DNA from: Patescibacteria group bacterium
GTDB taxonomy: Bacteria > Patescibacteriota > UBA1384 > XYA2-FULL-43-10 > 1-14-0-10-43-13
Direction of reading: 5' to 3'
DNA length: 64,000 nucleotides
Assembly: GCA_041674765.1 (NCBI GenBank)
Contig: JBAYVE010000001.1
Location: 2,321 to 66,320, forward strand
Shown here: positions 13,293 through 60,614 of the stretch, piece after piece
How positions within the stretch are numbered: the first letter of the stretch is position 1
How the letters are laid out: each line of letters begins with the position of its first letter
The notes under the pieces: model-generated
What the model was told of the DNA's origin: nothing
The model's database searches: none
The model's input: only the letters and a program-made list of their open reading frames with translations
Made by a program: the position numbers and the translations under genes

Positions 13293-14396
13293 ATGAAAAT
13301 AGTATTGCTGCAATCGAATTTTGCAAAAGCGCTGAACCAGGTATCCAGAGTCGTCGGGGCCCGTACGACCCTACCTGTTTTGAGTAATGTTTTGTTATCT
13401 GCCAAAAAAGGCAAGATAAGACTCTCTGCGACCGATCTGGAAGTTGGTATCACAACTCAGACTGTCGGCAAGATAGAAGAAGAGGGTGAGCTGACCTTGC
13501 CGGCCAGACTGCTATCTGATTTTATCTCAAATAATAAAGACGAGTCGATTGAGATTACTACAGAAGGAATGGTCGCCACCTTGAAGTCAAGTCATTTCGA
13601 GGCAACAATCCAAGGGATTTCTGCCGAGGAGTTTCCGACAGTTCCAGAAGCCCCGAAGGAGTATTATTCTTCTGTTAAAAGAGGGGAATTGGCTGACGCG
13701 TTGAAAAAGGTAAATCTAGCGGCTGCCAATGACGAATCAAGGCCGGCGCTAGCAGGTGTTTTTTGGCAATTTGACTCGGGTGCCCTGACTTTAGCGGCGA
13801 CAGATTCATACCGTTTGGCCGAGAAGAAACTAATTCTAGAGAAGAATGTAGAGAAAAAAGATATTATTATTCCAGGTAGGACGATGAATGAAATTGCCCG
13901 GTTATTGGGAGCTGAGGAGGTTGAAGATGTCCTGTTGGCGGTCGCAGATAATCAAGTAACATTTAAGGTAGGGGATATTTTGATCGTCTCCAGACTCATT
14001 GAGGGTGTGTTCCCCAACTATAGGCAGATTATTCCAACCGGTTATAAAACAACAGTGAAAGCCGGTCTATCAGGACTTCAGTCAGCTGTTAAAATGTCTT
14101 CTCTGTTCGCCAAGGACTCGGCTAACAATAATATTAAACTTGTGGTCGATAAGGTGCTAACAGTGGTCTCATCGGTATCTCAGACTGGCAGCGCAAAATC
14201 AACGGTGGATGCCGAAATTTCCGGTACCGGTCTGACAATAGCCTTCAACGCTAGATATGTCCTTGATGTTCTCTCGGTTATCGGTGGGGACAAAGTGATC
14301 TTTCAGTTTAATGAAAGTAGTTCTGCTGCCCTAATCAAATCTGAGAAAGACGAGAATTACAACTATATTATAATGCCGTTGAAGGCTGAGAGCTAG
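13293..14396 (+). CDS. dnaN: DNA polymerase III beta sliding clamp DnaN (start at the second ATG, 13293, which has an AGGAG SD)
   Basis: MKIVLLQSNFAKALNQVSRVV...LPVLSNVLLSAKKGKIRLSATDLE is a canonical DnaN N-terminus; follows dnaA. Confidence 0.9.
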   Translation: MKIVLLQSNFAKALNQVSRVVGARTTLPVLSNVLLSAKKGKIRLSATDLEVGITTQTVGKIEEEGELTLPARLLSDFISNNKDESIEITTEGMVATLKSSHFEATIQGISAEEFPTVPEAPKEYYSSVKRGELADALKKVNLAAANDESRPALAGVFWQFDSGALTLAATDSYRLAEKKLILEKNVEKKDIIIPGRTMNEIARLLGAEEVEDVLLAVADNQVTFKVGDILIVSRLIEGVFPNYRQIIPTGYKTTVKAGLSGLQSAVKMSSLFAKDSANNNIKLVVDKVLTVVSSVSQTGSAKSTVDAEISGTGLTIAFNARYVLDVLSVIGGDKVIFQFNESSSAALIKSEKDENYNYIIMPLKAES

Positions 14397-30516: not shown

Positions 30517-31495
30517 TTGATGGTTCTGTCTCCTGTTTAGTTTCCTCTTGGCCCTTTTCGTCATCTGCGACCGGCACGGCCGGTCCTGTTTTCCCGGGAG
30601 TTGGACTGTCCGGGGTATCTTTGGTTTGTGAGCTCGAAGTTTGTCCGTTGCTACTTTTGCTTGACTCGGCTTGAGCCGCTTCTGCCTTGAGTCTCTCTTC
30701 CTGTTCAATCTTTCGCTGTGCCAAAACAACATTGGAATTGTCGATCATATCTAATTCTTCCTGGCTTTTTTTGCCGTCATTTTCAGTCTCTGCAGCATCA
30801 GCTACTTTCATTTTCTTCTTAGTCTCGCTCGCAGCGATAATAATGGGGGAGGCGAGTGAAACAGCATCTTCAATTCGCTCCTTTGAAGCTTCATCAGGAT
30901 TGTAGACCTGATAAAACAATTCTATTAACTGTTCAGTCGATAATTGGAAGCAGTGAAGGCCCATGCTTCCCAAGCCTTGGGCTACTATTGCGCCCCTTTC
31001 CATTATTTTTTTTGCATTGGTCTCAAATTCCTGGTCTGTAATTTTGATATGGTCGTAAATGGTCGCTTTTTTCGGTTTAAATAACTTATCAAATAAACCT
31101 GATTGTTGAATTGCCATCGGCTGGTAGGAGACAACAACGTAAAAATTCTTTTTCATTATGTTGGCCATCGTAATCAGTTCGCCAATGAAGTCTATGTAGT
31201 CGTCGGTCTGTGCCTTCAAGAGTTCGTTCCCCTGGCTTTTGGCTATATCGGTCAGTTTCTTCAGGTATGGCGCCAAGTCGAGCTGTTTTGATCTGATAAT
31301 TATTTCGATTGGGAAATGGAGTGAGTTGAGAAAACCCTGATATTGAAAAACAATCGAATTTTGTTCAGCCTCGCTTTTTAGGTTAAAATTGGCGGCTGCG
31401 ACCTGTAAGACTATCCGGTAGGAACCGTCTTTTAGGATGATAATGCCGTCTTTTATTCCGGCGATATCGATAGCTTGTTGAGTGGAAAACACCAT
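30509..31495 (-). CDS. VirB4 N-terminal-domain-like protein with about 110-aa acidic/Ser/Gln-rich disordered tail; encoded separately from and translationally coupled to the VirB4 ATPase
   Basis: LKDGSYRIVLQVAAANFNLKSEAEQNSIVFQYQGFLNSLHFPIEIIIRSK parallels the extreme N-terminus of A. tumefaciens VirB4 (LEDGSIMSIARIDGVAFELEE...FNTLLRNIADDHVSIYAHLVRH; from memory); tail ...ETENDGKKSQEELDM...AEAAQAESSKSSNGQTSSSQTKDTPDSPTPGKTG...DDEKGQEETKQETEPSNG. Confidence 0.5.
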   Translation of the reverse strand: MVFSTQQAIDIAGIKDGIIILKDGSYRIVLQVAAANFNLKSEAEQNSIVFQYQGFLNSLHFPIEIIIRSKQLDLAPYLKKLTDIAKSQGNELLKAQTDDYIDFIGELITMANIMKKNFYVVVSYQPMAIQQSGLFDKLFKPKKATIYDHIKITDQEFETNAKKIMERGAIVAQGLGSMGLHCFQLSTEQLIELFYQVYNPDEASKERIEDAVSLASPIIIAASETKKKMKVADAAETENDGKKSQEELDMIDNSNVVLAQRKIEQEERLKAEAAQAESSKSSNGQTSSSQTKDTPDSPTPGKTGPAVPVADDEKGQEETKQETEPSNG

Positions 31496-39982: not shown

Positions 39983-41032
39983 ATGACTGCCAATCTGATT
40001 GAACTGAAAAGACAATTTTTGGAGTATTGTGAGTTGGACAAGGGCCAATCTCTCTTGACGATAGAAAATTATAACCGGTATCTGGATAGATTTTTTAAAT
40101 TTTTGGAAGAACAACGTGCTGTCATTCCTGCGAAGGCAGAAATCCAGAAGATTAAGGAATTGGATTCCGGATCTCCAGATACAGTCCGGAATGACACTGT
40201 TGAGCTTCTACCATCCGATATAGATCAGGAATGCGTCCGGCAATACCGTCTTTACGTCAACAGGCTAAAGGATGACCGGGGAAGAGAGTTAAAAAGGTCA
40301 ACTCAGAACTTTCATATGCTGGCGCTCCGTGCGTTTCTTCGATACCTCGCTAGGAGTGGTATCGCGAGCCTGGCAGCTGATAAAGTTGATATCGCCAAGA
40401 CGGGCGACCGAGAGGTCACTTTTCTCGAGGGAGAAGAGATTGGTAATATGCTGAAGCTTCCTGACACGGATGAGCTGTCCGGACTGCGGGATCGCGCCAT
40501 TTTAGAGGTGCTATTTTCAACCGGTCTCCGTGTCTCAGAATTAGCAAGCCTCGATATTGATGATTTGAACTTCGATCGTGGCGAGATCTCGATTCTCGGG
40601 AAGGGGAAAAAAATCAGAGTAGTTTTTCTTTCTGAGGAAGCGGTTTATTGGCTTCTTCAATATACCAAGAACCTTGGTTGGGCCGATAAAGAAAAGGACC
40701 AACCTTTATTGTTATCGAACAGAGGGACGCGGCTGACAGTTAGGTCAATCGAGCGGATTGTCAAAAAATATGCTTTGCGAGCAGGCATAGGCAAAAAAGT
40801 CTCGCCACACACCTTGCGTCACTCTTTTGCGACCGATCTCCTTATCGCTGGTGCCGATATCCGCAGTGTTCAGTCCATGCTCGGCCATGCCTCGATTACG
40901 ACCACTCAAGTCTACACCCATATTACAGATCAACATCTTCGGGAAATTCATCAAAAATTTCATGGCAGATCACTAAAAGAGGAAAAAAGCGCCGAAGAAA
41001 GTCATATCACAACAGAGGAAAAAAGCGAATAG
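39983..41032 (+). CDS. Tyrosine site-specific recombinase, XerC/XerD family, with an insertion of about 60 aa in the N-terminal core-binding domain and an acidic C-terminal tail
   Basis: N-terminus LKRQFLEYCELDKGQSLLTIENYNRYLDRFFKFL; catalytic region R..., HTLRHSFATDLLIAGADIRSVQSMLGHASITTTQVYTHI (RHRH...Y). Confidence 0.85.
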   Translation: MTANLIELKRQFLEYCELDKGQSLLTIENYNRYLDRFFKFLEEQRAVIPAKAEIQKIKELDSGSPDTVRNDTVELLPSDIDQECVRQYRLYVNRLKDDRGRELKRSTQNFHMLALRAFLRYLARSGIASLAADKVDIAKTGDREVTFLEGEEIGNMLKLPDTDELSGLRDRAILEVLFSTGLRVSELASLDIDDLNFDRGEISILGKGKKIRVVFLSEEAVYWLLQYTKNLGWADKEKDQPLLLSNRGTRLTVRSIERIVKKYALRAGIGKKVSPHTLRHSFATDLLIAGADIRSVQSMLGHASITTTQVYTHITDQHLREIHQKFHGRSLKEEKSAEESHITTEEKSE

Positions 41033-46089: not shown

Positions 46090-46851
46090 TTAGAGAGATG
46101 TACTGGCGGGAGTGGCAGTGTCGTCGGCAGTATCATCAGAGGTAGTGTTTGTAGGGGTTGATCCAGCCTGCGATTGATTATCCTGTATTTGCGATGATGT
46201 TGGCTGAACTTGACTTTGATTAATAGCCGACGGGTTGATATCCGCTGTCTGGGACTGTGTATTGTCTACTGGCGCTGACGTAACCGGAGTCTGCGCCGGA
46301 GGAGTACCTGCTCCTGAACCGGCTGAGCTGAAGGAGAATGGTGAACTGTCTGCCTGGCCAAAAGCGATACCGGTATTTGCTGAATCCTGGTTTGGGGCAA
46401 CGGGGGCGGGAGCTGCAGCCGGCCGATCAAGTGGAAGGCTAGTATCGGTAACGGCTGTCGCCACTGGCGCAGGAGTATTAATCTCGGCCGGACCGAAGAT
46501 ATCTGCATTTAAGTCGGGGCTGCTGGCGGCAAATGGATCGGATGGCACAGCCGACCCAGTGGGCTGATCCCATGTGGCAGTCGGTGCTGACTCCAGAGCA
46601 GGCGGAGTGGCTGGTTGTCCGGCATTTGCCTCTGCTATTTGATCTGCATTACCTTCGTCCACAATCAGATCGGTGTGGGGAATACCGGTCAGCTTTTCTA
46701 GATGATGAACGCCGACAATGATGGCCGCGGGTTTACCATTTTTTGTAATAACATAAAGTTGTTCAGAATCTTCGACCTCATCGATTATTTTGTTAAGAGA
46801 GTCCCTCGCCTCGGTTACGGGTAAAATTTTCTCAACATCTACGTCTAGCAT
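46090..46851 (-). CDS. Phd/YefM-antitoxin-like N-terminal domain fused to an Ala/Pro/Thr/Ser/Gln-rich disordered tail of about 170 aa; no cognate toxin adjacent
   Basis: ILPVTEARDSLNKIIDEVEDSEQLYVITKNGKPAAIIVGVHHLEKL (YefM-like) then ...AGQPATPPALESAPTATWDQPTGSAVPSDPFAASSPDLN...TSAPVDNTQSQTADINPSAINQSQVQPTSSQIQDNQSQAGSTPTNTTSDDTADDTATPASTSL. Confidence 0.45.
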   Translation of the reverse strand: MLDVDVEKILPVTEARDSLNKIIDEVEDSEQLYVITKNGKPAAIIVGVHHLEKLTGIPHTDLIVDEGNADQIAEANAGQPATPPALESAPTATWDQPTGSAVPSDPFAASSPDLNADIFGPAEINTPAPVATAVTDTSLPLDRPAAAPAPVAPNQDSANTGIAFGQADSSPFSFSSAGSGAGTPPAQTPVTSAPVDNTQSQTADINPSAINQSQVQPTSSQIQDNQSQAGSTPTNTTSDDTADDTATPASTSL

Positions 46852-48939: not shown

Positions 48940-50048
48940 TGTCTGAAGAAGTTCTTTGGAAAAAAATAGAGGGAGGGGTTTTTGTCATCGCCGAAATTGG
49001 CAAGAATTTCATCCAATCCGAAGAAGAGAAACCGGTTTTAGAATATTTGAAAAATGCCAAAAAACTTGCGTTGGCTGCCAAAGAAGCAGGTGCTGATGCT
49101 GTTAAGTTCCAGACCCATAATGTAGAAGATGAACAGATACAAACCAAAGTCGTCTCGCCTCATTTCAAAGGCATGGACCGCTACTCCTGGGTTAAACGCA
49201 ATACACTCGTAACTCCTTTGGAAGGTTTCTGGAAGCCGCTAAAAGCGTATTGTGACCAGATAGGAATCACGTTCTTTTCCACGCCGATGTCTCGTGGGGC
49301 TGCAGAGATTGTGGAGAAAATCGGTGTTGACCTTTGGAAGGTTGGATCAGGCGATATTTTAGACTTTGTCATGCTTGATTATTTGACTCAGACAAAAAAA
49401 CCGATCATTCTCTCAGCCGGAATGTCCACTTTGGAGGAGTTGGACCTTGCTTTGAATTTCCTGAAGAAAAGGAAGTCAAAATTCGCACTTTTGCACTGTG
49501 TTTCCCAATATCCCTGTCCTTTGGAGAAGCTAAATTTGTCGACGCTTGAATATTTCAAAGAGAGATATGAATGCCCGATCGGTTTTTCTGATCATTCGGT
49601 TGGTGAACAGGTGGCTCTTGCCGCAGTCAAGCAAGGCGCCAAAATTATTGAGAAACATTTTTCCTTCGGTCGTGATTTATGGGGCTCTGATCACAAAGTC
49701 TCGATGACACCTAAGGAGATGAAAGAGATGATAGACAAAATCCGTTTGCTGGAGAAGAAAATTTTTGTTGGGACGGACGAACAGTTGATTAAAAAAGCGA
49801 TGGGCAAGAAGGGAAAAATACTGCAGGAGGACGAAGCAGTCTTCCGTCCATTTTTTCGGAAGGCGCTAGTAGCCGGATGTGAGATTAAAAAGGGTGAGAA
49901 AATACAGCCGGAGATGATATATGCGATGAGACCGCAAGCATATATAGCCGGGCTTCACTCTGAAGAATATGAAAAAATAGTCGGTAAAGTTGCCAAAAAA
50001 AAATTTTCCAAATATGAGCCTTTTGATATTGATAGTATTTATAATTGA
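48939..50048 (+). CDS. neuB: NeuB-family nonulosonic acid synthase (N-acetylneuraminate/legionaminate synthase-like) with C-terminal SAF-like region
   Basis: VFVIAEIGKNF...AKEAGADAVKFQTH...; TIM-barrel NeuB signature; ATGA overlap with the upstream gene. Confidence 0.75.
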   Translation: MSEEVLWKKIEGGVFVIAEIGKNFIQSEEEKPVLEYLKNAKKLALAAKEAGADAVKFQTHNVEDEQIQTKVVSPHFKGMDRYSWVKRNTLVTPLEGFWKPLKAYCDQIGITFFSTPMSRGAAEIVEKIGVDLWKVGSGDILDFVMLDYLTQTKKPIILSAGMSTLEELDLALNFLKKRKSKFALLHCVSQYPCPLEKLNLSTLEYFKERYECPIGFSDHSVGEQVALAAVKQGAKIIEKHFSFGRDLWGSDHKVSMTPKEMKEMIDKIRLLEKKIFVGTDEQLIKKAMGKKGKILQEDEAVFRPFFRKALVAGCEIKKGEKIQPEMIYAMRPQAYIAGLHSEEYEKIVGKVAKKKFSKYEPFDIDSIYN

Positions 50049-51394
50049 CGGTTCATTCTATGAGCATTAAAAAACTGTTAGGTGAGATGGTAAAGATATT
50101 CATTAATTTTCTAAGAGTGTTAAAGAGTCATTGGTTTGTAATATTTTTGCTTGCTGTCGGTCTCTTTTATTCATTTTATAGCGCTGTTTTTCTGAAACCT
50201 CATGATGCAGACAATCTAATTGCGCTCTCCTTCGGCTTAAGAAACCCTTCTGAGTTTATTACGGGGTCTTTTACTTCATATTTTCCGGCTTACCGTCCGT
50301 TGGCACAGCTTATTATCTGGTTCCAGTATCAGATTTCAGGCGTAAGCTCTTCAGAGAGTTACTTTGTTATAAATATTCTAATTTGGCTTCTTTGCGCTGT
50401 TTTTGTATATCTGATTGTCCATAATCTAACAAAGCACAAAGTTGCCTCTGCTGCCGCTTCTTTATTACTGTTTCTCGATCAGCGATCTTTCAATTCGATT
50501 ATTTGGATAGGCGAAAGACAGAGTTCGTTAGCTGTTCTATTCGGTTTGGCTGCTTTGTTCGTCAGCCTTCGTACCAATCGATATAACATTGCTCGGATCT
50601 TCTTGATTATGTTTTTATTACTTGCTGCTATGCTGTGCAAAGAATATGGAATTGCTTTTGCCGGCGCAATTGTTCTTATCGCTTTTACTAAGAAAAAAGA
50701 CAAAGGCAAGTTAATCTTGGCCTCAATTCTTTCTGTTGTTATCTATTTCGTGATGCGTTTTGTTATCGCTAGTGGCGGGGGCCTGCGTAATTACTGCGAA
50801 GATATGGGCTATTTTCAAACGGTCGCATATATTTGTTATCAAAATTTGCCGCTGATGGTTGAGATCAAACAGCATATCTATAATACCGGTGCATCGTTCA
50901 TAGGCACCTTTATGCCATTGGCCTTCACCGATAAGGGGCAGATAATTCTATCGCCGGAAATAATTATTCATTATGCCCCGAGCTTTGTTCTGGCGTTGTG
51001 GGTAACTTGTCTTGCTATCTTTGCACTAATAAAGCAACACAAGAAGGCCTTACCCTTTTTGGGTTTAATAATCTTCTGTGCCATCCTAAATTTTATGCTT
51101 TACCGCGGACGCAATCAGTTGGTCGGAGTGACCGGCTTATCGATAATTTTCGGTTTGGGCCTCTCTGGTTTAAAGGTGAAGAAGCAATTAATACCGCTCT
51201 TTTGCTTTGTTATAGTTTTTTTAATACTTTTATTTCCGGGCAGGAGGCTTAGAAATGATATTCTTGAATACACGGCGCTTGAACCCAGCAATACCTACTG
51301 CTTGCAGGAGAGATACCCATTTGATATTAATAGGGATGTGGTTAGCAATTTAAATCAAAAATACAATCTAATATTTAGGGAATGTGATGACTAA
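50045..51394 (+). CDS. Polytopic membrane protein, putative GT-C glycosyltransferase (ArnT/PMT/GtrC-like)
   Basis: About 11 hydrophobic helices; acidic motif HDADN in the first extracytoplasmic loop, as in GT-C enzymes; sits within the glycan locus. Confidence 0.4.
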   Translation: MTVHSMSIKKLLGEMVKIFINFLRVLKSHWFVIFLLAVGLFYSFYSAVFLKPHDADNLIALSFGLRNPSEFITGSFTSYFPAYRPLAQLIIWFQYQISGVSSSESYFVINILIWLLCAVFVYLIVHNLTKHKVASAAASLLLFLDQRSFNSIIWIGERQSSLAVLFGLAALFVSLRTNRYNIARIFLIMFLLLAAMLCKEYGIAFAGAIVLIAFTKKKDKGKLILASILSVVIYFVMRFVIASGGGLRNYCEDMGYFQTVAYICYQNLPLMVEIKQHIYNTGASFIGTFMPLAFTDKGQIILSPEIIIHYAPSFVLALWVTCLAIFALIKQHKKALPFLGLIIFCAILNFMLYRGRNQLVGVTGLSIIFGLGLSGLKVKKQLIPLFCFVIVFLILLFPGRRLRNDILEYTALEPSNTYCLQERYPFDINRDVVSNLNQKYNLIFRECDD

Positions 51395-52166
51395 AAATAC
51401 CAAAGTAGTTATTCTGGCCGGAGGGCTTGGAACAAGGATAAGCGAAGAAACGACCCTAAAACCGAAACCAATGGTAGAGATCGGAGGCAAACCGATCCTC
51501 TGGCATATAATGAAGATCTATTCAGAACAGGGTTTCAATGATTTCATTATTTGCCTTGGCTACAAGGGTTTTTACATCAAAGAATGGTTTAGTCATTACT
51601 ATCTTCATCGGTCTGATGTTACCTTTGATTTTGAAAAGAACCAGACGATATTCCATAATCCCAAATCAGAAGATTGGAAGGTGACTCTAGCCGATACAGG
51701 GGAAGCAACGATGACGGGTGGCAGAATCAAGCGAATCAAGGATTATATTGGCGATAAGACTTTTATGCTGACCTATGGAGACGGGGTCAGCGATGTGGAT
51801 ATAAACAAGTTGCTGAAATTCCACAAAAGAAGCAAAAAGATTGCGACTATGACCTCAGTTATTCCGGAGGGCAGATTTGGTGCCCTGAAACTAATGGGAT
51901 CAAAAGTTAAAAATTTTGCTGAGAAGCACGATAACAAGTCAAGGATCAACGCCGGATTCTTTGTACTAGAACCAGCGATTTTTAACTATATTGAAGGAGA
52001 TGAAACTGTTTTCGAGCAGGAGCCACTGCAAAGGTTAGCGGAGGAAGGGCAGCTGGTAACTTTTAAACACGAAGGTTTCTGGAAGGCGATGGATAGTTTG
52101 TCGGATAAAAATAAATTGGAAGCGATGTGGGAAAACTGCGACGCTCCCTGGAAGACTTGGGAATAA
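51384..52166 (+). CDS. rfbF: Glucose-1-phosphate cytidylyltransferase (RfbF/DdhA)
   Basis: VVILAGGLGTRISEETTLKPKPMVEIGGKPILWHIMKIYSEQGFNDFIICLGYKG is near-identical in pattern to RfbF. Confidence 0.9.
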   Translation: MMTKNTKVVILAGGLGTRISEETTLKPKPMVEIGGKPILWHIMKIYSEQGFNDFIICLGYKGFYIKEWFSHYYLHRSDVTFDFEKNQTIFHNPKSEDWKVTLADTGEATMTGGRIKRIKDYIGDKTFMLTYGDGVSDVDINKLLKFHKRSKKIATMTSVIPEGRFGALKLMGSKVKNFAEKHDNKSRINAGFFVLEPAIFNYIEGDETVFEQEPLQRLAEEGQLVTFKHEGFWKAMDSLSDKNKLEAMWENCDAPWKTWE

Positions 52167-52167
52167 A

Positions 52168-53238
52168 ATGCAGATCACGGAGTTTATAAAAGGCAAAAAG
52201 TTTTTAGTAACAGGACATACCGGTTTTAAAGGGGCTTGGCTGACTAAAATTATTCTTCAGTTCGGCGGAGAGGTCTCAGGTTACGCCCTGGCGCCGAATA
52301 CGTCCCCTTCCCTTTTTGAGGCCTTAGGTTTGAAGTCTCAGATAGAGAATCATTTTGGTGATATTAGAGATCTCGAAAAATTTGATAAAGTAGTAGCTGC
52401 TTACAAGCCTGATGTTATTCTCCATCTTGCTGCTCAACCATTGGTTCGGGCATCTTATGATAAACCGGTTTATACTTTCGAGGCAAATGTTATTGGCACA
52501 GTTAACGTGCTAGAAAGTATCCGCAGAAATAAGATAAAATCCGGTGTCATTATCACGACCGACAAAGTATACAAAAATCTGGAGAAGGATGTTTTATTTA
52601 AAGAAGAAGATGCACTCGGGGGACACGATCCCTATAGTGCCAGCAAGGCTTGCACGGAGATAGTTGCTGATTCGTATATCAAATCATTTTTTTCAACCGA
52701 AAAGTATAAGAAAGATCATGAAACCCTAATAGCTACTGCCCGTGCCGGCAACGTCATTGGCGGGGGAGACTGGGCAGAGGATCGGCTGATTCCAGATGTC
52801 GTACGTTCACTTTTTACCACAAAGGAGACGCTGATCCTGAGAAATCCATCTGCAGTTAGGCCTTGGCAACATGTTTTCGAGTCACTTTATGGTTATCTGC
52901 TATTGGCTTGCCGGCTACACAACGGCGAAAAAAACTTTGTCGGCGCCTGGAATTTCGGCCCTGAAAAAAGTGATATGCTCAAGGTTGAAGAAATCATCAA
53001 GAAGCTTCTTGGAATTCTAGGCAATTATAAAGTCTGCCCTGACCCAGCCAAACCGGAGATGATGCTTTTGAAATTGGACAACAGTCGAGCCAAAGAACTT
53101 TTGAAATGGAAAACTACCTATAACATTGATCAGGCCGTAGAAACGACAGCGGCTTGGTATAGAGCATTTTTTAATGAGAAAAATAAAATAGGAGAATTTT
53201 CCGAGTCACAAATAAAAGAATATTTCCATAATAAATAA
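52168..53238 (+). CDS. rfbG: CDP-glucose 4,6-dehydratase (RfbG/DdhB)
   Basis: FIKGKKFLVTGHTGFKGAWLTKIIL...; YSASKAC; SDR extended family. Confidence 0.9.
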   Translation: MQITEFIKGKKFLVTGHTGFKGAWLTKIILQFGGEVSGYALAPNTSPSLFEALGLKSQIENHFGDIRDLEKFDKVVAAYKPDVILHLAAQPLVRASYDKPVYTFEANVIGTVNVLESIRRNKIKSGVIITTDKVYKNLEKDVLFKEEDALGGHDPYSASKACTEIVADSYIKSFFSTEKYKKDHETLIATARAGNVIGGGDWAEDRLIPDVVRSLFTTKETLILRNPSAVRPWQHVFESLYGYLLLACRLHNGEKNFVGAWNFGPEKSDMLKVEEIIKKLLGILGNYKVCPDPAKPEMMLLKLDNSRAKELLKWKTTYNIDQAVETTAAWYRAFFNEKNKIGEFSESQIKEYFHNK

Positions 53239-53247
53239 AGGTTAGAG

Positions 53248-54540
53248 ATGAAAAAAGATATCAGGAATTTAGTAAAAAAGCATTTCAAGGCTCAATCAAA
53301 TAACGGCGCGATACCTGTCAGCCGGAAGATTTTTGACGAGGAGGAGCTGGGAAATTTGATCGAGGCATCGCTAGAAGGATGGTGGACTGAAGGAAAATGG
53401 GCGGCCCTTTTTGAAGACAAACTGAAAGAGTTCTTGGGTGTGAAGTTTGTCCATGCGGTCAACTCCGGCTCATCAGCCAATTTGCTTGCCTTCTCAGCCC
53501 TTTGTTCGCCATCTTTAGGGGAACGCCAGTTAAAGCCAGGGGATGAGGTAATAACGCTTGCTGCCGGATTTCCAACGACTGTGAATCCGATCATCCAAAA
53601 CAGTTGTATCCCCGTCTTTGTTGATATTGATCTCGCAACGTATGATATTGATGTTTTGGAAATGGAAAAGGCTCTCTCCAAGAAGACAAAGGCAGTAATG
53701 ATCGCACATACACTTGGCAATCCTTTCAATATCAAATCGGTCAAAAAGTTTTGCCGTGAAAATAATCTCTGGCTGATCGAGGATAATTGCGATGCTTTGG
53801 GGTCGGAATACGCTGGTAAAAAAACAGGCACATTTGGTGATATTGCCACTCTTTCCTTCTATCCGGCTCATCATATCACGACCGCTGAGGGTGGCGCAGT
53901 TATCACCAATAACGCGAAACTATCTAAAATTCTTGTTTCTATCAGGGATTGGGGACGTCATTGTTGGTGTAAAACTGGCACTGACAATACCTGCAAAAAC
54001 CGTTTTAGTTGGCAATTAGGTCAGTTGCCAACCGGCTATGATCACAAATATATCTATGGTGAGCTCGGCTACAACCTAAAACTGAGCGATCTTCATGCTG
54101 CGATTGGTGTCGCTCAAATGGATAAATTAGATAATTTTATCAAAAAGAGGCGTGAAAATTTCAATTATTTATCTCAGAAGTTTGCTTCTTTGGACAATTA
54201 TTTTGCTCTTCCGAAGGCGACAAAAAACGCCGATCCTTCTTGGTTCGGCTATCTTTTGAGGATTACTGACGACAGCATTGACCGAGAAGATCTGCTTAGA
54301 TTCTTAGATAGTAAGAAGGTAGGGACCAGGCTACTTTTCGCCGGTAATTTGATTAAACAGCCGTATATTGCCGGAAACAAAGGCATCAAATATCGAAAAG
54401 TTGGGAACTTAAAAAATACTGACATAGTAATGAATAGAGTTTTTTGGATTGGTCTCTGGCCAGGGCTCAGCAAAGAAGAGCTTGATTATGCTGTAAAAAT
54501 GATCAGCGATTTTATAAGGGAAAAAAATGGCAAAAGTTAA
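53248..54540 (+). CDS. rfbH: CDP-6-deoxy-D-xylo-4-hexulose 3-dehydrase E1 (RfbH/DdhC), DegT/DnrJ/EryC1-type
   Basis: DegT family fold; active-site His replacing the PLP-Lys: SFYPAHHITTAEGG is diagnostic of E1; N-terminus like RfbH. Confidence 0.85.
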   Translation: MKKDIRNLVKKHFKAQSNNGAIPVSRKIFDEEELGNLIEASLEGWWTEGKWAALFEDKLKEFLGVKFVHAVNSGSSANLLAFSALCSPSLGERQLKPGDEVITLAAGFPTTVNPIIQNSCIPVFVDIDLATYDIDVLEMEKALSKKTKAVMIAHTLGNPFNIKSVKKFCRENNLWLIEDNCDALGSEYAGKKTGTFGDIATLSFYPAHHITTAEGGAVITNNAKLSKILVSIRDWGRHCWCKTGTDNTCKNRFSWQLGQLPTGYDHKYIYGELGYNLKLSDLHAAIGVAQMDKLDNFIKKRRENFNYLSQKFASLDNYFALPKATKNADPSWFGYLLRITDDSIDREDLLRFLDSKKVGTRLLFAGNLIKQPYIAGNKGIKYRKVGNLKNTDIVMNRVFWIGLWPGLSKEELDYAVKMISDFIREKNGKS

Positions 54541-56290
54541 ATTATCGGATTATGTTATATCTTTTTTGGCAGAGCATGAGGTTGGATATGTTTTTGGTTA
54601 TATCGGAGGCGCGATTACTCATCTTGTTGATTCGGCTAGCAAAAATCGAAAGATCAAATTTATTCAGGTTTATCATGAGCAGACGGCTTCTATTGCCGCA
54701 GAGGGATATGCAAGGCAAACTGGTAATATCGGCGTAGCAGCGGCGACTAGCGGACCTGGGGCTACCAATATGGTGACTGGCATCGCCGATGCATATTTCG
54801 ACTCAATCCCAACAATCTATCTTACCGGACAAGTAAACACTTATGAATATAAGTATGACAAAAAAGTCCGGCAGCAGGGCTTTCAAGAAACAGACATCGT
54901 CAGCATCGTCAAACCAGTTACGAAGTATGCCAAACTGGTTGATAAGCCAGAAGAGATCCGTTTCGAGCTAGAAAAAGCTTTCTATCTTGCAAAAGAGGGC
55001 AGGCCAGGGCCGGTTCTTTTGGATCTTCCGATGGATATTCAACGAGCAGAGATTGACCCTGGTAAATTGAAGAAGTTCATTCCGGAAAAATCCCTGCCAA
55101 AAGAGCTGAATCTTCTTAAGATCAAAAAAATGCTTGAAAAAAGCAGCCGGCCGATAATTTTGGCGGGCGGTGGTGCTGTAAATTCTGGGGCCGAGAAGGA
55201 GCTTTTCAGGTTTGCGAAGAAGAATAATATTCCCGTCGTCACTTCGTTGATGGGAAAAGGAAGTTTTCCTGAGGAGCACTCGCTTTTTATCGGCATGATC
55301 GGAAGCTATGGTAATCGTGCCGCGAACATCGCTTTATCGAACGCCGATCTTCTTTTGGCTATCGGTAGTCGGCTGGATACAAGACAGGTCGGTACAAACT
55401 TAAAAAGCTTTTTGAGGTCTGGCCGGATAGTACATATCGACATAGATAAAAATGAATTAAAACACAACAGGCTAAACGGCAGAATTACCTTAAATATCGA
55501 TGCAAAAAACTTTCTCAAAAAAATTAATGATCTAAAGATTGAAAAAAGGGATAGGCCTCTGTGGGTCTCTTACATTAAAAAAATAACGGCTATTTATAAT
55601 CAGAAGGTTGAATCGGAGAGAAGATGCCCGAACAAGACCCCATATGACCTAATGGAAGTATTGAACAAGGTGTCTCTAAAAGACCAGATTTTCACTGTCG
55701 ATATTGGCCAAAATCAGATGTTTGCCGGCCAAGGATTAACAATCAGGGAAAGGCAGCGCTTTTATACCAGCGGCGGAATGGCGCCAATGGGTTATGCTAT
55801 GCCCGTGGCGATCGGAGCCAGTTTTGCTGACAAAAAGAAAAAAATTATTGCCATCACTGGGGATGGAGGTTTTCATATCTCAACGCAATCGCTCATGCTA
55901 ATTTCGCAATATAACCTTCCGATAAAGGTAATAATTCTCAATAATGCCTCTCTTGGGATGATAGTCCAATTTCAGGATTTGTATTTCGACTCAAATGAAG
56001 TAGCAACTACCAAATCCGGAGGCTATTTAGTACCAGATTTTAAAGCCATGTCAGCTGCTTACGGTTTGCCATTTATCAAAATTGGCGATTTGTCTAGGCA
56101 GAGGAAGAGATTAGAGGAGGCTTTGGCCTCTCCTGGCGGCATGATTATCGAGGTAAATACTGGCGGGAAAACAATAGTAGCTCCAAAGCTTGAGGTCAAT
56201 TGTCCGATCGAAGATATGAACCCAAGGCTAGATAAGGCAGAGCTGAGAGATAATATGATTATTGATTTATTCGGCGAAGGCAAGGAGTAG
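54527..56290 (+). CDS. ThDP-dependent acetolactate-synthase-like enzyme (IlvB/AHAS large-subunit family); candidate YerE-like sugar C-branching enzyme
   Basis: N-terminal PYR domain GYIGGAITHLVD...GYARQTGNIGVAAATSGPGATNMVTGIADAYFDSIPTIYLTGQV; ThDP motif ITGDGGFHIS...NNASLGM; embedded between rfbH and a reductase. Confidence 0.8.
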   Translation: MAKVKLSDYVISFLAEHEVGYVFGYIGGAITHLVDSASKNRKIKFIQVYHEQTASIAAEGYARQTGNIGVAAATSGPGATNMVTGIADAYFDSIPTIYLTGQVNTYEYKYDKKVRQQGFQETDIVSIVKPVTKYAKLVDKPEEIRFELEKAFYLAKEGRPGPVLLDLPMDIQRAEIDPGKLKKFIPEKSLPKELNLLKIKKMLEKSSRPIILAGGGAVNSGAEKELFRFAKKNNIPVVTSLMGKGSFPEEHSLFIGMIGSYGNRAANIALSNADLLLAIGSRLDTRQVGTNLKSFLRSGRIVHIDIDKNELKHNRLNGRITLNIDAKNFLKKINDLKIEKRDRPLWVSYIKKITAIYNQKVESERRCPNKTPYDLMEVLNKVSLKDQIFTVDIGQNQMFAGQGLTIRERQRFYTSGGMAPMGYAMPVAIGASFADKKKKIIAITGDGGFHISTQSLMLISQYNLPIKVIILNNASLGMIVQFQDLYFDSNEVATTKSGGYLVPDFKAMSAAYGLPFIKIGDLSRQRKRLEEALASPGGMIIEVNTGGKTIVAPKLEVNCPIEDMNPRLDKAELRDNMIIDLFGEGKE

Positions 56291-57235
56291 ATGAAAATTT
56301 GTATTTTAGGTGCGTCCAGCCATATTGCTCGAGGATTAGTTTTTAATTTTCTCCAAGAAGGAGAGGATGATCTCTACCTATTTGATAAGGGTATTTATTG
56401 TTTCAATAACTATACTGCCGACTTAAGCTCAAAGAAAGTCAGAAAAATCGGTCTATCGGATAAGTTTGAGTCAGTCAATTTTGACGCTATCATAAATTGT
56501 ATAGGGATTGGTGATCCGGCGAAACTGAAGCAGGCCGGTGGATTTATCTTCGACTTGACGGAAAAATTTGACAACAAGATTTTGAAGTATTTAGAAAAAC
56601 ACAAAAGAACGCTTTATATCAATTTAAGCAGCGGCGCCGTTTTCGGAAAATCTGTGAGCAAACCAATTAACAATTCGACGCTTACAACTCTTGATTTAAA
56701 CAATATCCAACCGGAGGATTATTATTCAATCACAAAAATTAATTGTGAGGCTAAGCACCGAGCACATCCGGATCTTAGAATTATCGATCTTCGTGTTTTC
56801 TCATATTTTAGCCGGTTCATCTCGTTGGAGACTGGTTTTTTCATGACTGATGTCATCAACGCACTTTTGGAGGACAGAGTTTTAGAGACACAAAGTGGTG
56901 ATATGGTTCGAGACTTTATTCATCCGAGTGATTTCTTCGCTTTAGTGAAGAAATGCCTTGCGGCTGATGATATTAATGCAGCCTTCGACGTAGTAAGCAG
57001 AAAGCCGGTCAAAAAGACTGAAATTCTAATACATTTCAAGGACAGGTTCGGTCTAAAGTATAAATTCGTGGATAAAGAAGGTTATATTGAGGCAACTGGT
57101 GCTAAGAATTCTTATTTTTCAAAAAATTTGAAGGCCAAAGAGATTCTTGATTTTATTCCGGAGCATAGCTCGCTTCGAGCTCTCGAAATGGAAACGGAAA
57201 CAATATTATTAGGAGCAAAATGCAAAAGAGATTAA
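56291..57235 (+). CDS. NAD(P)-dependent epimerase/reductase-like Rossmann protein (short-chain family)
   Basis: MKICILGASSHIARGL (GxxGxxG-like); YSITKINCEAK (YxxxK). Confidence 0.5.
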   Translation: MKICILGASSHIARGLVFNFLQEGEDDLYLFDKGIYCFNNYTADLSSKKVRKIGLSDKFESVNFDAIINCIGIGDPAKLKQAGGFIFDLTEKFDNKILKYLEKHKRTLYINLSSGAVFGKSVSKPINNSTLTTLDLNNIQPEDYYSITKINCEAKHRAHPDLRIIDLRVFSYFSRFISLETGFFMTDVINALLEDRVLETQSGDMVRDFIHPSDFFALVKKCLAADDINAAFDVVSRKPVKKTEILIHFKDRFGLKYKFVDKEGYIEATGAKNSYFSKNLKAKEILDFIPEHSSLRALEMETETILLGAKCKRD

Positions 57236-58170
57236 TCTCAATCGTAACTCCCTGTTATTGCGAGGAAAAAAATGTAGTTGAAGTCAGCAAGCGCGTGGCC
57301 AAAGTTTTCAAGATTCTAGATAAATATGAATACGAACATATTTTCATCGATAATTGTTCTCCTGATGGTACCGTGAAGATTCTCAAAGGTCTGGCAGCCC
57401 AAGATAAGCATATTAAACTTATCTTAAATGCCAAAAACTTCGGTCATATCCGTTCACCTTTTTATGGCCTTCTGCAGGCTAAGGGAGATGCAGTCATTTT
57501 GCTAGTTTCTGATCTCCAGGATCCGCCTGAGATGATTATTGATTTGATCAAAAAATGGGAAGAGGGATTCAAGATCGTCATCGGGACTAAAAACAAGAGT
57601 GAAGAGAGTCCTGTCATGTTTGCTCTACGGAAGCTCTATTACGGCATGATTAAAAAGATCTCTGAAACCGAGCATATCAAGAACTTTACCGGTTTTGGTC
57701 TCTACGATCAAAAATTTATTGAGGTTTTGCGCCAACTGGATGATCCTTATCCGTATTTTAGAGGTTTGGTAGCTGAGCTTGGTTTCGAACGGGCAGAAAT
57801 AAACTACACACAACCCAAGAGAAAGAGAGGTAAAACCAACAACAATTTTTATACCCTTTATGATATCGGTATGCTGGGCTTCGTCAATCATTCTAAGGTG
57901 CCGATCAGGATCGCCAGTTTTATCGGATTTTGTGCTGCTATCGCCAGTCTCTTGATCGCAGTCGGTTACTTGATTTACAAGATAATGTTTTGGGATAGAT
58001 TTGATTTGGGAACTGCGCCAATGGTAATCGGCCTCTTCTTTTTCGCCTCCGTCCAACTCTTTTTCATCGGTATCATCGGCGAATATATTGGAGCTATTTT
58101 TACCCAAGTTCGAAATCGGCCCCTAGTAATTGAAAGAGAGAGAGTGAATTTTGATAAAAAAAGTTCCTAG
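57220..58170 (+). CDS. gtrB: GT2 polyprenyl-phosphate glycosyltransferase (GtrB/ArnC/DPM1-like) with C-terminal TM helices
   Basis: ISIVTPCYCEEKNV...IFIDNCSPDGT...VSDLQDPPE (DxD-like); two C-terminal TMs. Confidence 0.8.
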   Translation: MQKRLISIVTPCYCEEKNVVEVSKRVAKVFKILDKYEYEHIFIDNCSPDGTVKILKGLAAQDKHIKLILNAKNFGHIRSPFYGLLQAKGDAVILLVSDLQDPPEMIIDLIKKWEEGFKIVIGTKNKSEESPVMFALRKLYYGMIKKISETEHIKNFTGFGLYDQKFIEVLRQLDDPYPYFRGLVAELGFERAEINYTQPKRKRGKTNNNFYTLYDIGMLGFVNHSKVPIRIASFIGFCAAIASLLIAVGYLIYKIMFWDRFDLGTAPMVIGLFFFASVQLFFIGIIGEYIGAIFTQVRNRPLVIERERVNFDKKSS

Positions 58171-58525
58171 TTCGGAATTTATCCGCTTTGTCCTAGTCGG
58201 CATCTTAAATACTCTCTTTGGTTACAGCATCTTTGCCTTGCTTATCTTTTTGCAGTTAAACTACGCCGCCGCTTTGCTGCTGGCCACTATTATGGGTGTT
58301 TTTTTCAATTTCAAGACGATCGGAAAGTTGGTTTTCAAATCCAGCGATAACAAATTGATTTTCCGGTTTGCCGGAGTTTATACTGTGGCGTACCTTTTGA
58401 ACTTAGGATTAATTTTTGCACTTAGTTTTTGGATCTCAAACCGCTATTTAGAGCAGGCCATACTAGCTTTTCCTGTCGCACTTTTTTCATATTATCTAAA
58501 TAAGCGTCTTGTCTTTGCTCGGTAA
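58151..58525 (+). CDS. gtrA: GtrA-family small membrane protein (second copy)
   Basis: FIRFVLVGILNTLFGYSIFALLIF...NKRLVFAR; overlaps the gtrB stop. Confidence 0.6.
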   Translation: MIKKVPSSEFIRFVLVGILNTLFGYSIFALLIFLQLNYAAALLLATIMGVFFNFKTIGKLVFKSSDNKLIFRFAGVYTVAYLLNLGLIFALSFWISNRYLEQAILAFPVALFSYYLNKRLVFAR

Positions 58526-58599
58526 TTATTAATAATTCGCTCCTCCTCTCTTGTGTGCTAATTATGTGTAATTTTATTGCCCTGATATTTGGCCACGCA

Positions 58600-58627
58600 T
58601 TGACAAAATGACCATAAATGCTATTAT
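58600..58627 (+). promoter_or_regulatory. sigma70-like promoter (TTGACA, 16 nt, TATTAT) at the edge of the GC-rich island
   Basis: Hexamers read directly; followed by hairpin CTCGGC-N12-GCCGAG and SD AGGAGG. Confidence 0.35.
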
Positions 58628-58674
58628 GGGATGTTCTCGGCGACCGAAAACATGCCGAGCGCAGGAGGTGTCCA

Positions 58675-59298
58675 TTGGAAAACATTATCAATGTTATCCG
58701 GCAGGTATTATCCTTGCTGGGGCAAATACCCAACATGGCGATTTGTCAGCAAAGCTCGTATGATCGAGCGATGGAGCTTATCAAAAAGACCGGCGGCTTG
58801 CTGCTCGGTCTAGTCCCCAGAGGTATGCCTCTTGGGACTGAACTGTTTGAGGGCGTTGCCGCCCTTTCCATATCCGTAGCCTACGAAATGGTCGTTTTCC
58901 GAACAGGCCAAGACGGTCGAGTCGAGGTCTATATGACGAAGCGCACGGATGATGACCCGGCTTACCCGGGTGAATGGCACTGTCCGGGGACGGTCAGAAG
59001 GCCTTGGGAATCGCCGGCGGACGCGATCGAGCGCCTGGCGCAACGGGAGTTTGGCGCTCGTATTATCAGCTATAAAATCGTCGGGATGATCGACGATTAT
59101 GCCGAGAAGCGGGGGCATTTCTACACTCCAGTTTGTATCGGCCATCTTGACGGCGAGCCTACCAGCCCTCGAGGGGATTGGTTCCCGGTCGATCAGCTTC
59201 CCGAGAACACGGTCAAGCATCATTCCGTGGGTGTTGTGCCGTGCGCTCTAGAGTGGCGGGATCTTCCGGATATTCCGATCATGGAGATCCGAGCATAA
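58675..59298 (+). CDS. NUDIX-like hydrolase-fold protein (degenerate Nudix box), encoded in a GC-rich island; probable TTG start with perfect SD
   Basis: AGGAGG 6 nt upstream of TTG 58675 (ORF track begins at 58618); ...GRVEVYMTKRTDDDPAYPGEWHCPGTVRRPWESPADAIERLAQREFGA resembles the Nudix fold but departs from GX5EX7REUXEEXGU. Confidence 0.35.
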   Translation: MENIINVIRQVLSLLGQIPNMAICQQSSYDRAMELIKKTGGLLLGLVPRGMPLGTELFEGVAALSISVAYEMVVFRTGQDGRVEVYMTKRTDDDPAYPGEWHCPGTVRRPWESPADAIERLAQREFGARIISYKIVGMIDDYAEKRGHFYTPVCIGHLDGEPTSPRGDWFPVDQLPENTVKHHSVGVVPCALEWRDLPDIPIMEIRA

Positions 59299-59318
59299 CG
59301 CCGGAACATGTGTATGGG

Positions 59319-59347
59319 GGCGGCTGTAAAAGGCTGCCTCTTTTTTT
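59319..59347 (+). terminator. Rho-independent terminator (GGCGGC-tgtaaaag-GCTGCC then TCTTTTTTT)
   Basis: 6-bp stem with one G-U pair plus T7 run immediately after the NUDIX-like gene. Confidence 0.55.
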
Positions 59348-59456
59348 AAACAACCCATCACATGGGGCGTTTGAAGCAAACCTTATCTTCGCTTGAAAAA
59401 AGGGTCGTCTTTCGGTATTCTCTAAATAAGCTTAAAGTTAATCTCTATTTTCACCT

Positions 59457-60614
59457 ATGGCAGAGAAAAGAAAAGTCTGTGTAGTTGTGGCCAGCCGGGC
59501 AAACTACGGACGAGTTAAATATTTGATGAAGGCGGTCAAGGAGCATCCACAACTAGAACTCCAGTTGATTGTTGGGGCCTCTACTTTGCTCTACCGCTTC
59601 GGTAAAGCAGTCGATATTATCAAGAAGGACGGTTTTACGCCTTCGAGAAATCTTTATTATGTCGTTGAAGGTGATACTTTAGCGACGCAATCGAAGTCTG
59701 CAGGGCTTGGTATTCTCGAACTTTCCTCCGCTTTTGAGGATCTGCAGCCCGATGTGATTGTTTCTGTCGCTGATCGTTTTGAGACGATGGCCACGGCTGT
59801 TGCCGCTACCTATCAAAATATTCCATTAGCCCATCTCCAAGGAGGAGAGATTAGCGGAAATATTGATGATCGAGTTCGACATGCCATAACAAAGCTGGCC
59901 GATATCCATTTTGTTGCCAGCGATGAGTCAAGAAATCGTGTTATCAAAATGGGTGAAGACCCAGATTATGTTTTAAATTATGGCTGTCCGGCAATGGACA
60001 TTTTGAAAAACGAAGATCTGGCAATCAGTAATCAAGGCATGGTTCAATATGGCGGGGTCGGATCTAAGGTTGATTGGAGAAAACCTTATGTTCTAATGGT
60101 TCAGCATCCTGTCACTACCTCATACGGCAAGGGCTTCGATCAAGTCAATGAAACTCTTTGCGCGTTGGAAAAATTTCCGGAACTTCAAAAGATTGTACTC
60201 TGGCCGAATATTGATGCCGGCACTGATGATGTATCCAAAGCGATTAGAATATTCCGTGAAAAGCATATGGAGGATAACTTCCATTACTTCCGCAACTTTT
60301 CACCAGAGGATTATGCCCGTGTTCTAAATAATGCTCTCTGCGCTGTCGGCAACTCCAGCAGTTTTATTAGAGAAGCTGCTTATCTTGGCGTTCCTGCCGT
60401 GATTGTTGGCGATCGTCAGAGGGGAAGAGAGCACGGCTCAAATGTTGTCTTTGCTGACTACAATTCAGAGAATATCGGCAAAAATGTCACGAGTCAGTTG
60501 AATCACGGACGTTATAAGAGCGACCAAATCTTTGGCCGGGGCGATGCCGGTAAGAGGATTGCGGATAAATTAGCGACTGTTAAATTTACCGCCATTAAAA
60601 AGATAATGTATTAA
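59457..60614 (+). CDS. neuC: UDP-N-acetylglucosamine 2-epimerase (hydrolysing), NeuC/LegG-type
   Basis: KVCVVVASRANYGRVKYLM...PDVIVSVADRFETMATAVAATYQNIPLAHLQGGEISGNIDD... Confidence 0.8.
   Translation: MAEKRKVCVVVASRANYGRVKYLMKAVKEHPQLELQLIVGASTLLYRFGKAVDIIKKDGFTPSRNLYYVVEGDTLATQSKSAGLGILELSSAFEDLQPDVIVSVADRFETMATAVAATYQNIPLAHLQGGEISGNIDDRVRHAITKLADIHFVASDESRNRVIKMGEDPDYVLNYGCPAMDILKNEDLAISNQGMVQYGGVGSKVDWRKPYVLMVQHPVTTSYGKGFDQVNETLCALEKFPELQKIVLWPNIDAGTDDVSKAIRIFREKHMEDNFHYFRNFSPEDYARVLNNALCAVGNSSSFIREAAYLGVPAVIVGDRQRGREHGSNVVFADYNSENIGKNVTSQLNHGRYKSDQIFGRGDAGKRIADKLATVKFTAIKKIMY

Follow-up and report, generated by a model that had tools for sequence, protein, structure and literature searches.

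The closest described counterparts of the gene discussed here fall into three groups of Nudix proteins. GDP-mannose mannosyl hydrolase (GDPMH; Gmm/NudD/WcaH of E. coli, PDB 1RYA/2I8T) cuts the sugar-phosphate bond at C1, giving a nucleoside diphosphate and the free sugar, and its catalytic base is taken to be His124, from the loop that precedes the YRW strand. In GDP-sugar glycosyl hydrolases, key residues of the Nudix box were lost alongside a change of mechanism (PMC5389931). UDP-Xase and CDP-Chase (PDB 4HFQ, 3Q1P, 6NCH) have 200–210 residues and a three-helix N-terminal domain, and their substrates are pyrimidine-nucleotide precursors of the cell wall (PMC3655063). The third group comprises the regulators NrtR and AraR (PDB 3GZ8, 5BS6, 2FML). 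Here, we analyzed a Nudix gene that lies next to a set of CDP-hexose genes in contig JBAYVE010000001.1 (Patescibacteria metagenome-assembled genome, 365 kb), within a stretch of 64 kb and 42.3% overall GC that is called the window throughout. A preliminary description of this DNA had presented the gene as part of a GC-rich island, acquired recently from a higher-GC donor. We favor another reading, to which we give a probability of about 0.6: this is a single, independently transcribed Nudix gene that has long been an accessory of CDP-hexose loci, and its GC excess is no mark of recent import. A bolder proposal, put forward tentatively and at slightly short of even odds, is that the family is held 10–25 GC points above any host by a gene-specific force acting in place, and that its product is a new one-glutamate Nudix enzyme for CDP-sugars.

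The Nudix protein and its CDP-hexose context

Membership in the Nudix superfamily, proposed earlier together with a divergent box, is borne out by the Pfam NUDIX model (PF00293), which the protein matches with 29.1 bits (threshold 21.1), and the box is indeed degenerate. None of the curated NCBIfam subfamily models was reached, with MutT, NudI, and GDP-mannose mannosyl hydrolase scoring 11–14 bits against cut-offs of 95–148. The AlphaFold model made with a deeper alignment (predicted local distance difference test score of 93) shows helices at residues 2–16, 26–44, and 54–64, then the Nudix domain at 66–195; nothing follows the domain, the protein ending at residue 207 right after the last Nudix helix. 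With G-x5-E-x7-R-E-U-x-E-E-x-G-U taken as the canonical Nudix box, the window protein reads T106-x5-E112-x7-R120-L121-A-Q-R124-E125-F-G-A; T106 stands where the canonical G would be, L121 at the position of E53, and R124 at that of E56, with E112, R120, and E125 kept. The complete box is thus not present, and the loss of the G, of the Glu after the Arg, and of the first Glu of the EE pair is family-wide, the family consensus being WH[CA]PG[ST]-x2-R-x2-E-x7-R-L-x3-E-[FL]-G. In an alignment of 60 sequences, R90, W101, H102, P104, G105, R109, R120, and E125 are invariant, and E71, E112, L121, G147, W169, L175, P176, and H183 are nearly so.

When 5.8 billion proteins were searched with a word index, no more than five relatives emerged. 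The exhaustive profile search of cluster representatives gave 1368 at E ≤ 0.001, 550 at E ≤ 1e-10, and 110 at E ≤ 1e-30, with family members typically 160–220 aa long; the closest relative found for the window gene is 49% identical. Judging by its sequence, the protein is a member of a large, unnamed, and uncharacterised Nudix-fold subfamily that occurs mostly in Patescibacteria. Fused double-domain members of 374–413 aa were also seen (P0007, P0010, P0025, P0040, and P0058), as were tandem paralogue pairs (L003 658–1799, L082 5318–6476, and L008 9390–10555).

The preliminary description had likened the protein to GDPMH, and at the level of the box this comparison stands. GDPMH is the structural neighbor with the highest sequence identity (25%), and alignment of the family with E. 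coli Gmm (gmm sequence taken from L101:5744–6223) by hhalign gave a probability of 89% (E = 2.4e-6, 78 columns). Once aligned, both have E-x7-R-L-x3-E-x-G, as well as an Arg after strand 1. The modified box R-L-x3-E-x-G lacks the E after the R and the first E of the EE pair, so that the same two of the three catalytic glutamates have been lost from the Nudix box in both. In contrast, the C-terminal halves do not align, the window protein has an additional three-helix N-terminal domain, and the family has conserved residues of its own (H102, R109, and H183). The pathway is not the same either, as the neighbors are RfbF/RfbG/RfbH of CDP-glucose metabolism and not the manC/gmd/fcl genes of GDP-mannose/GDP-fucose metabolism.

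In overall architecture the protein resembles UDP-X diphosphatase and CDP-Chase, which also have about 200–210 aa with three N-terminal helices and a C-terminal Nudix domain. Foldseek placed CDP-Chase on top with our first model (6nch/3q1p), and UDP-X diphosphatase (4hfq) could be aligned structurally over 168 residues, helical part included. However, identity is just 11–17%, and the motifs described for these enzymes, GUXXarX2DXXarDX[E/D]RXar of the helix-loop-helix (HLH), the YXTP hinge, and LPXLS (PMC3655063), are absent by inspection. Their full KEUXEEXGU box (PMC3655063) is likewise missing, the window protein having RLAQREFG. In addition, they have been reported solely from Gram-positive bacteria, whereas the window family is mainly found in Patescibacteria.

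A different view of the product, which we regard as unlikely while still giving it appreciable weight, is that the protein is no hydrolase but a non-catalytic sensor or regulator of nucleotide sugars, as are the Nudix domains in NrtR and AraR. In the ranking of structural neighbors, the NrtR Nudix domain came first and AraR fourth. The window protein, however, has no C-terminal winged-helix DNA-binding domain, its model ending with the Nudix domain, and its box retains the metal-binding E125 and E112. The kept E112, R120, and E125, together with the invariant H102, R90, and R109, match what the one-metal enzyme GDPMH retains.

The genes upstream of the Nudix gene support the earlier statement that this is a sugar-nucleotide locus. 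RfbF (glucose-1-phosphate cytidylyltransferase, 396 bits), RfbG (CDP-glucose 4,6-dehydratase, 441 bits), and RfbH (670 bits) all exceed their NCBIfam cut-offs (300, 278, and 423, respectively). They are followed by a thiamine diphosphate (ThDP) enzyme that is acetolactate synthase (ALS)-like (YerE-like) but under the ALS cut-off, a short-chain dehydrogenase/reductase (SDR), a GT2 glycosyltransferase related to PgfS/ArnC, and GtrA. We take the series RfbF-RfbG-RfbH-ThDP enzyme-reductase to be the layout of a yersiniose-type branched-sugar pathway, an assignment that serves as a lead only. Downstream of the Nudix gene are a hydrolysing UDP-GlcNAc 2-epimerase (neuC-like), a methyltransferase, and a CMP-sugar synthetase, with NeuB lying farther upstream of the Nudix gene.

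Similar surroundings are found in the family, whose genes have RfbF/RfbG-type genes beside them in most loci. Among the 37 family loci with usable flanks, a 4,6-dehydratase/SDR homologue is present in 28, RfbF in 19, DegT/RfbH in 13, the ThDP enzyme in 9, and GT2 in 8. The distant relative L098 shares the window order ThDP enzyme-SDR-GT2-GtrA-family gene, and L100, also distant, shares GT2-GtrA-family gene; the adjacency is therefore old. In 16 of the 37 loci (L001, L002, L005, L006, L007, and 11 more), the family gene is the sole gene on its strand within a long co-directional sugar operon, and such a lone-strand gene often converges on RfbF-RfbG. The subfamily is tightly and anciently associated with CDP-glucose-derived pathways. 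In L098 (1–1801), genes for an acetaldehyde dehydrogenase (DmpF-like) and an HMGL-like aldolase (DmpG-like) were also observed directly upstream of the ALS-like ThDP enzyme; the two-carbon donor used in making a branched sugar may be a product of these enzymes.

Given the adjacent enzymes, the ligand would be a CDP-linked hexose. The protein most likely hydrolyses this CDP-hexose by means of one metal-binding glutamate, and would thereby regulate flux or clear dead-end intermediates ahead of the GT2/GtrA step. By analogy with the GDPMH-like box, cleavage would possibly occur at the glycosidic carbon. In an alternative role, the protein would sense CDP-hexose without catalysis.

The signals around the Nudix gene (Table 1) largely agree with the preliminary description. 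The promoter was found as described, with 11 of the 12 consensus positions matched and the top score of a scan of 58000–60000, and so were the Shine-Dalgarno sequence and the terminator. The TTG start is identical to that of the NCBI annotation of the same contig (P0001, 207 aa). The leader hairpin fared less well: the CTCGGC/GCCGAG arms exist, but the minimum-energy fold of the leader pairs these bases otherwise, and the inverted repeat is at present a putative hairpin. From these predicted signals, the Nudix gene is an independent single-gene transcription unit. Averaged over 34 family loci, GC falls short of the flank value by 0.09 in the bin from 100 to 50 nt upstream of the ORF, which is consistent with a private AT-rich promoter region across the family. 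Past the stop comes a GC-rich terminator stem, the first 50 nt being 0.09 above the flank value, and then an AT-rich stretch.

Base composition of the gene and its relatives

The abrupt rise in GC noted in the preliminary description is real. In 300-nt sliding windows, GC goes from 0.37–0.42 before 58500 to 0.55–0.59 across 58700–59300 and back to about 0.43. The figure of about 56% suits the ORF (0.551, with about 0.58 in its core) and not the interval 58540–59400 for which it was given (0.526). Both intergenic spacers (58526–58674 and 59299–59456) have a GC content of 0.42; the island is therefore the Nudix ORF alone. Its GC at codon positions 1, 2, and 3 is 0.62, 0.42, and 0.61, compared with about 0.43 for third positions (GC3) and about 0.42 overall in the rest of the window. 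Among the 43 window ORFs of at least 150 aa, it tops both GC and GC3, the GC3 of the others being 0.37–0.51. A comparison of codon usage, proposed earlier along with the sliding windows, gave an observed GC3 of 0.612 against 0.453 ± 0.033 expected when synonymous codons were drawn from window usage for the same amino-acid sequence (z = 4.7). No ribosomal-protein or elongation-factor genes lie within the 64-kb window. The second-highest GC (0.52) belongs to a 253-aa ORF with an N-terminal Phd/YefM antitoxin domain (46090–46851, − strand), whose surplus comes from codon positions 1 and 2 (GC2 0.53) and not from position 3.

The same contrast was found in almost every relative. A metagenome scan with a 6-sequence alignment added 56 loci, 40 of which had at least 1.5 kb of flank and were used for GC excess. 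In these, the GC of the family gene is higher than that of its flanks by a mean of 0.147 (standard deviation, sd, 0.063; maximum 0.25), and by more than 0.05 in 38/40. Among the ten loci from genomes and first look-ups (L001–L010), gene GC is 0.42–0.60 and flank GC 0.27–0.44, an excess of 0.08–0.19 in low-GC hosts; L009, the only high-GC host of this set, has a gene of 0.637 with flanks of about 0.61. The excess is present in 9 of these 10 loci, and overall in some 50 independent loci whose hosts range from 0.29 to 0.51 GC. It is also seen in L098 (gene 0.697, GC3 0.926, host about 0.51) and L100 (gene 0.670, GC3 0.88). GC3 values of 0.85–0.93 occur in hosts of 0.39–0.51 GC (L087, L090, L093, L098, and L100).

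Two components can be told apart in this excess. GC3 is raised by 0.20 (sd 0.15, Wilcoxon p = 3e-10), with both G and C elevated at third positions, and positions 1 and 2 by 0.112 (sd 0.033, p = 2e-12). In the profile averaged over 34 loci, the excess begins at the start codon, amounts to 0.15–0.21 in every decile after the first, and fades within 50 nt past the stop. Gene GC tracks host GC, with r = 0.53 for GC3 and r = 0.71 for positions 1 and 2. Other ORFs of the same loci serve as a control and differ from their surroundings by only +0.001 GC (sd 0.045), the few outliers being mostly antisense shadows of the family gene; 31 canonical Nudix genes from the same scan have an excess of 0.034. 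High GC is a hallmark of this gene family in dozens of unrelated low-GC genomes. As nearly every family member shows the contrast, the contrast alone is no evidence of recent import here.

No recurrent partner gene shares the anomaly: the GC-rich ORFs are few and unrelated, L008 having one for a TylF-like methyltransferase and one of unknown nature, and L064 one for a hydrolase of the HAD family. As a separate observation, L004 (9169 bp) is a mosaic in which the family gene and some other genes have 0.51–0.58 GC and an intervening 3.6-kb glycan block 0.33–0.40; in this contig, it is the low-GC block that may be foreign.

Could an antisense gene, a structured RNA, or some other second function share the DNA of the ORF and account for the GC-rich stretch? 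We find this very improbable. An antisense ORF of 137 codons does exist in the window, and in L058 and L091 the antisense ORF is longer than the sense one, but shuffling synonymous codons in 51 family genes yields open antisense frames that are at least as long. An Rfam scan of 58000–60000 returned a single chance-level match, outside the island, and no known structured RNA. The mRNA folds somewhat better than synonymous shuffles in the window (z = −2.6), but the surplus is weak and inconsistent: the other five of the six genes gave −0.1, −2.0, −2.8, −0.8, and −1.4, for a mean of about −1.6, too little for selection on mRNA structure to explain the composition. For the whole transcript, including the terminator and leader hairpins, z is −3.9.

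The GC excess would instead reflect a pressure towards GC that is specific to this gene and acts in place. The constant 0.11 at positions 1 and 2, about half of the excess, would correspond to an amino-acid composition encoded by GC-rich codons, and the remainder to a variable synonymous excess. Candidate forces are selection on the nucleic-acid composition of the transcript and repair or conversion with a strong GC bias at a junction where glycan loci recombine. A GC bias of gene conversion in recombining genes of bacteria has been suggested (PMC4450053) and would fit the junction position of the family gene. The sharp limits of the ORF and the AT-rich paralogue about 150 nt from the family gene in L052 (see below) argue against a regional process at the DNA level.

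Residence, import, or replacement

Polysaccharide loci are classic hot spots of exchange, and in several respects the gene looks like the compositionally atypical genes that are usually classed as recent transfers: a single gene in such a locus, off the GC and codon usage of its host and with signals of its own. It differs from them in that the offset is seen in about 50 hosts, scales with host GC, and is kept through co-divergence with the neighboring genes. Scaling and retention of this kind are unlike a transfer followed by drift towards host composition.

Evidence for long residence comes from sister loci. L090 and L093 are collinear over 4.3 kb. Between them, identity is 77–90% for the flanking proteins and 77% for the family protein, and the GC3 of either copy is 0.85–0.89 versus about 0.41 in the flanks. 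Four-fold sites in these flanks are 0.38–0.61 identical, against 0.26–0.29 expected from composition alone. Over such a divergence, a foreign gene should have relaxed visibly in composition. L052 and L058 behave in the same way. Furthermore, the identity of the family gene follows that of the adjacent RfbF (r = 0.68, 190 pairs).

That a cassette for a Nudix sugar-nucleotide hydrolase came recently, in one event, from a higher-GC donor, and has not yet adjusted its composition, appears improbable to us. The GC3 deviation from host codon usage and the private promoter and terminator are what one would expect of such an acquisition, and the 16-nt direct repeat around the unit, discussed below, is unique in the window. 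The nearest relative being so distant, and the best homologue of the neuC-like neighbor only 74% identical, no empty-site comparison could exclude an insertion. However, a gene that is atypical here should be host-like elsewhere, which is not what the 38/40 metagenomic and 9/10 genomic loci show. The recurrence of the GT2-GtrA-family gene order in L098 and L100 and the host-like spacers inside the repeat-bounded unit also speak against it. As for the donor, GC-rich flanks were found only in L009 (about 0.61) and L062 (0.54) among the 47 close loci (7 genomic and 40 metagenomic), and therefore no donor pool is visible; L098–L100 have flanks of 0.47–0.54 but had been selected for Arg-rich composition. 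The homologue search suggested in the preliminary description thus returned genes that are likewise GC-rich, yet mostly in low-GC hosts, and the higher-GC donor assumed there was not found. Of the recent acquisition itself, the argument from GC contrast falls, the contrast being family-wide, bound to the ORF, and persistent in sisters; what stands is that the repeat would allow a local insertion.

The two copies of this repeat (consensus TATT[A/C]TCTAAATAAGC; Table 1) are identical at 15/16 positions and bracket a unit of 926 bp. A match of 15/16 was reached in 1/1500 dinucleotide shuffles of the two 250-nt flanks, and 36 control genes of the window had flanking repeats of at most 13/16. No further copy with fewer than two mismatches occurs in the 64 kb. 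The bases before the right copy (59398–59415) also resemble the final gtrA codons. The window repeat is what a short-homology insertion or a rearrangement at the junction would leave, a hint that we treat as a lead only. When flanking repeats were examined in 43 family loci, 2/43 had one at P ≤ 0.05, the level expected by chance, and after correction for 43 tests the P-value of the window is about 0.03. Flanking repeats are therefore rejected as a family-wide signature of a mobile cassette.

Several observations weigh against long residence with a maintained composition, or against a GDPMH-like enzyme, and should be stated together. The Nudix unit of the window is flanked by the significant direct repeat just described. 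Intact members in L081 and L053 have host-like GC, and high GC is thus not needed for function. Synonymous sites of the sister pairs are not fully saturated, which leaves the persistence argument strong but not absolute. Between L001 (6500–7200) and L051 (445–1150), the adjacent dehydratase-like gene is 95–100% identical, the family gene with its spacers only 72–91%, and homology ends beside the family gene; the drop in identity and the loss of homology together indicate a recombination breakpoint at the family gene. L052 carries, at 5057–5434, a truncated paralogue with a degenerate motif (WHIPD, no C-terminal WFP..LP..H), a GC of 0.33, and a GC3 of 0.18, beside the intact copy (4333–4911; GC 0.56, GC3 0.65); the two are 40% identical and not recent duplicates. 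The L052 branch is losing GC, with 37 substitutions from G/C to A/T (S>W) versus 9 in the opposite direction (W>S). As to the protein, the GDPMH model PRK15434 was matched with only 11.1 bits (cut-off 146), His124 has no counterpart, the residues aligned before W169 being S/P/R/G/D, and the structure search favors no single neighbor.

Some of these points would suit a serial replacement, in which alleles from a GC-richer pool keep replacing the family gene faster than it can drift to host composition. The breakpoint between L001 and L051, the AT-rich degenerate paralogue next to a GC-rich intact copy in L052, the net S>W change on the L052 branch, and the strong variation of GC3 excess, with a few members fully host-like, all point in this direction. 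We nevertheless rate such replacement as rather unlikely. Family divergence follows that of RfbF, the L090/L093 genes have diverged like their flanks with GC3 undiminished, gene GC scales with host GC up to 0.70 in a host of 0.51, and the supposed pool was not seen, almost all hosts found being GC-poor. Substitutions polarised in three triplets gave a balance for L074/L082, near balance for L058, and the loss of GC in L052, in small numbers and with the bias of parsimony. In summary, maintenance in place is better supported than recent import, and serial replacement is possible.

Assembly is hardly a concern, in spite of an abrupt shift in composition within a metagenome-assembled genome. The window protein occurs in NCBI, ENA, and Logan, and three contigs carrying it (one of 50–200 kb and two of more than 200 kb), apparently from three sources, were grouped as sharing most of their neighboring proteins. 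These shared neighbors make an assembly chimera unlikely. In addition, the boundaries of the shift match the promoter and terminator, and both arrangement and contrast recur in unrelated assemblies, so that we give a chimera or a mis-binned fragment almost no weight.

Features of the locus and significance of the family

The features of the Nudix unit and of its surroundings are listed in Table 1. The neuC-like gene that follows has a predicted promoter of its own (TTGAAA-17-TATTCT, 59393–59421). Between NeuB and RfbF, a 449-aa ORF (50045–51394) had no Pfam or NCBIfam match, and PADLOC gave nothing meaningful in the way of defence systems.

Table 1. Coordinates of the Nudix unit and associated features, numbered from the first letter of the window.
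Feature	Position	Strand	Details
CDP-hexose module: RfbF, RfbG, RfbH, ALS-like ThDP enzyme, SDR, GT2 polyprenyl-phosphate glycosyltransferase, GtrA	51384..58525	+	NCBIfam, Pfam
Left copy of 16-nt direct repeat, TATTATCTAAATAAGC	58490..58505	+	Within the last 36 nt of gtrA
Sigma-70-type promoter, TTGACA-16-TATTAT with TG extension	58600..58627	+	11/12 matches; top site of the scan
Leader inverted repeat, CTCGGC...GCCGAG	58636..58659	+	6-bp arms (58636–58641, 58654–58659), 12-nt loop; read directly
Shine-Dalgarno sequence, AGGAGG	58663..58668	+	6 nt upstream of the TTG start; read directly
Nudix-fold ORF, TTG start, WH[CA]PG[ST] subfamily	58675..59298	+	207 aa and stop
Degenerate Nudix box, residues 101–127, WHCPGTVRRPWESPADAIERLAQREFG	58975..59055	+	From alignments
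Intrinsic terminator	59316..59348	+	10-bp stem (59316–59341) with 6 G-C pairs, then T7
Right copy of 16-nt direct repeat, TATTCTCTAAATAAGC	59416..59431	+	25 nt upstream of the neuC-like start; shares bases with the predicted -10 element of the neuC-like promoter

Elsewhere in the window, very large ORFs (2847, 924, 678, and 664 aa) occupy 16174–37718 on the − strand, with a TraG/VirB4-like P-loop ATPase at 28696–30732. A tyrosine recombinase (39983–41032) and a T2SSE/PilB-like ATPase (6677–8314) were also noted. The block of large ORFs with ATPases may encode a conjugation-like or pilus apparatus. The dnaN gene (DNA polymerase III beta subunit) is found at 13281–14396, and the window may thus be near the replication origin.

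Methods that detect transfer from composition assume that an atypical gene is a newcomer; if our reading is true, they would systematically misclassify this family. It would also mean that some force maintains a large, gene-specific GC offset in bacteria, and that an atypical composition can be heritable and need not mark a foreign origin. The one-glutamate box apparently arose independently of GDPMH and would offer a second test case for the change of mechanism in Nudix enzymes. In Patescibacteria, of whose surface glycans little is understood, loci for CDP-deoxyhexoses and branched sugars frequently include this unnamed family. Should its product be a Nudix protein of the GDPMH type that works on CDP-sugars, these pathways would gain a new point of control or editing.

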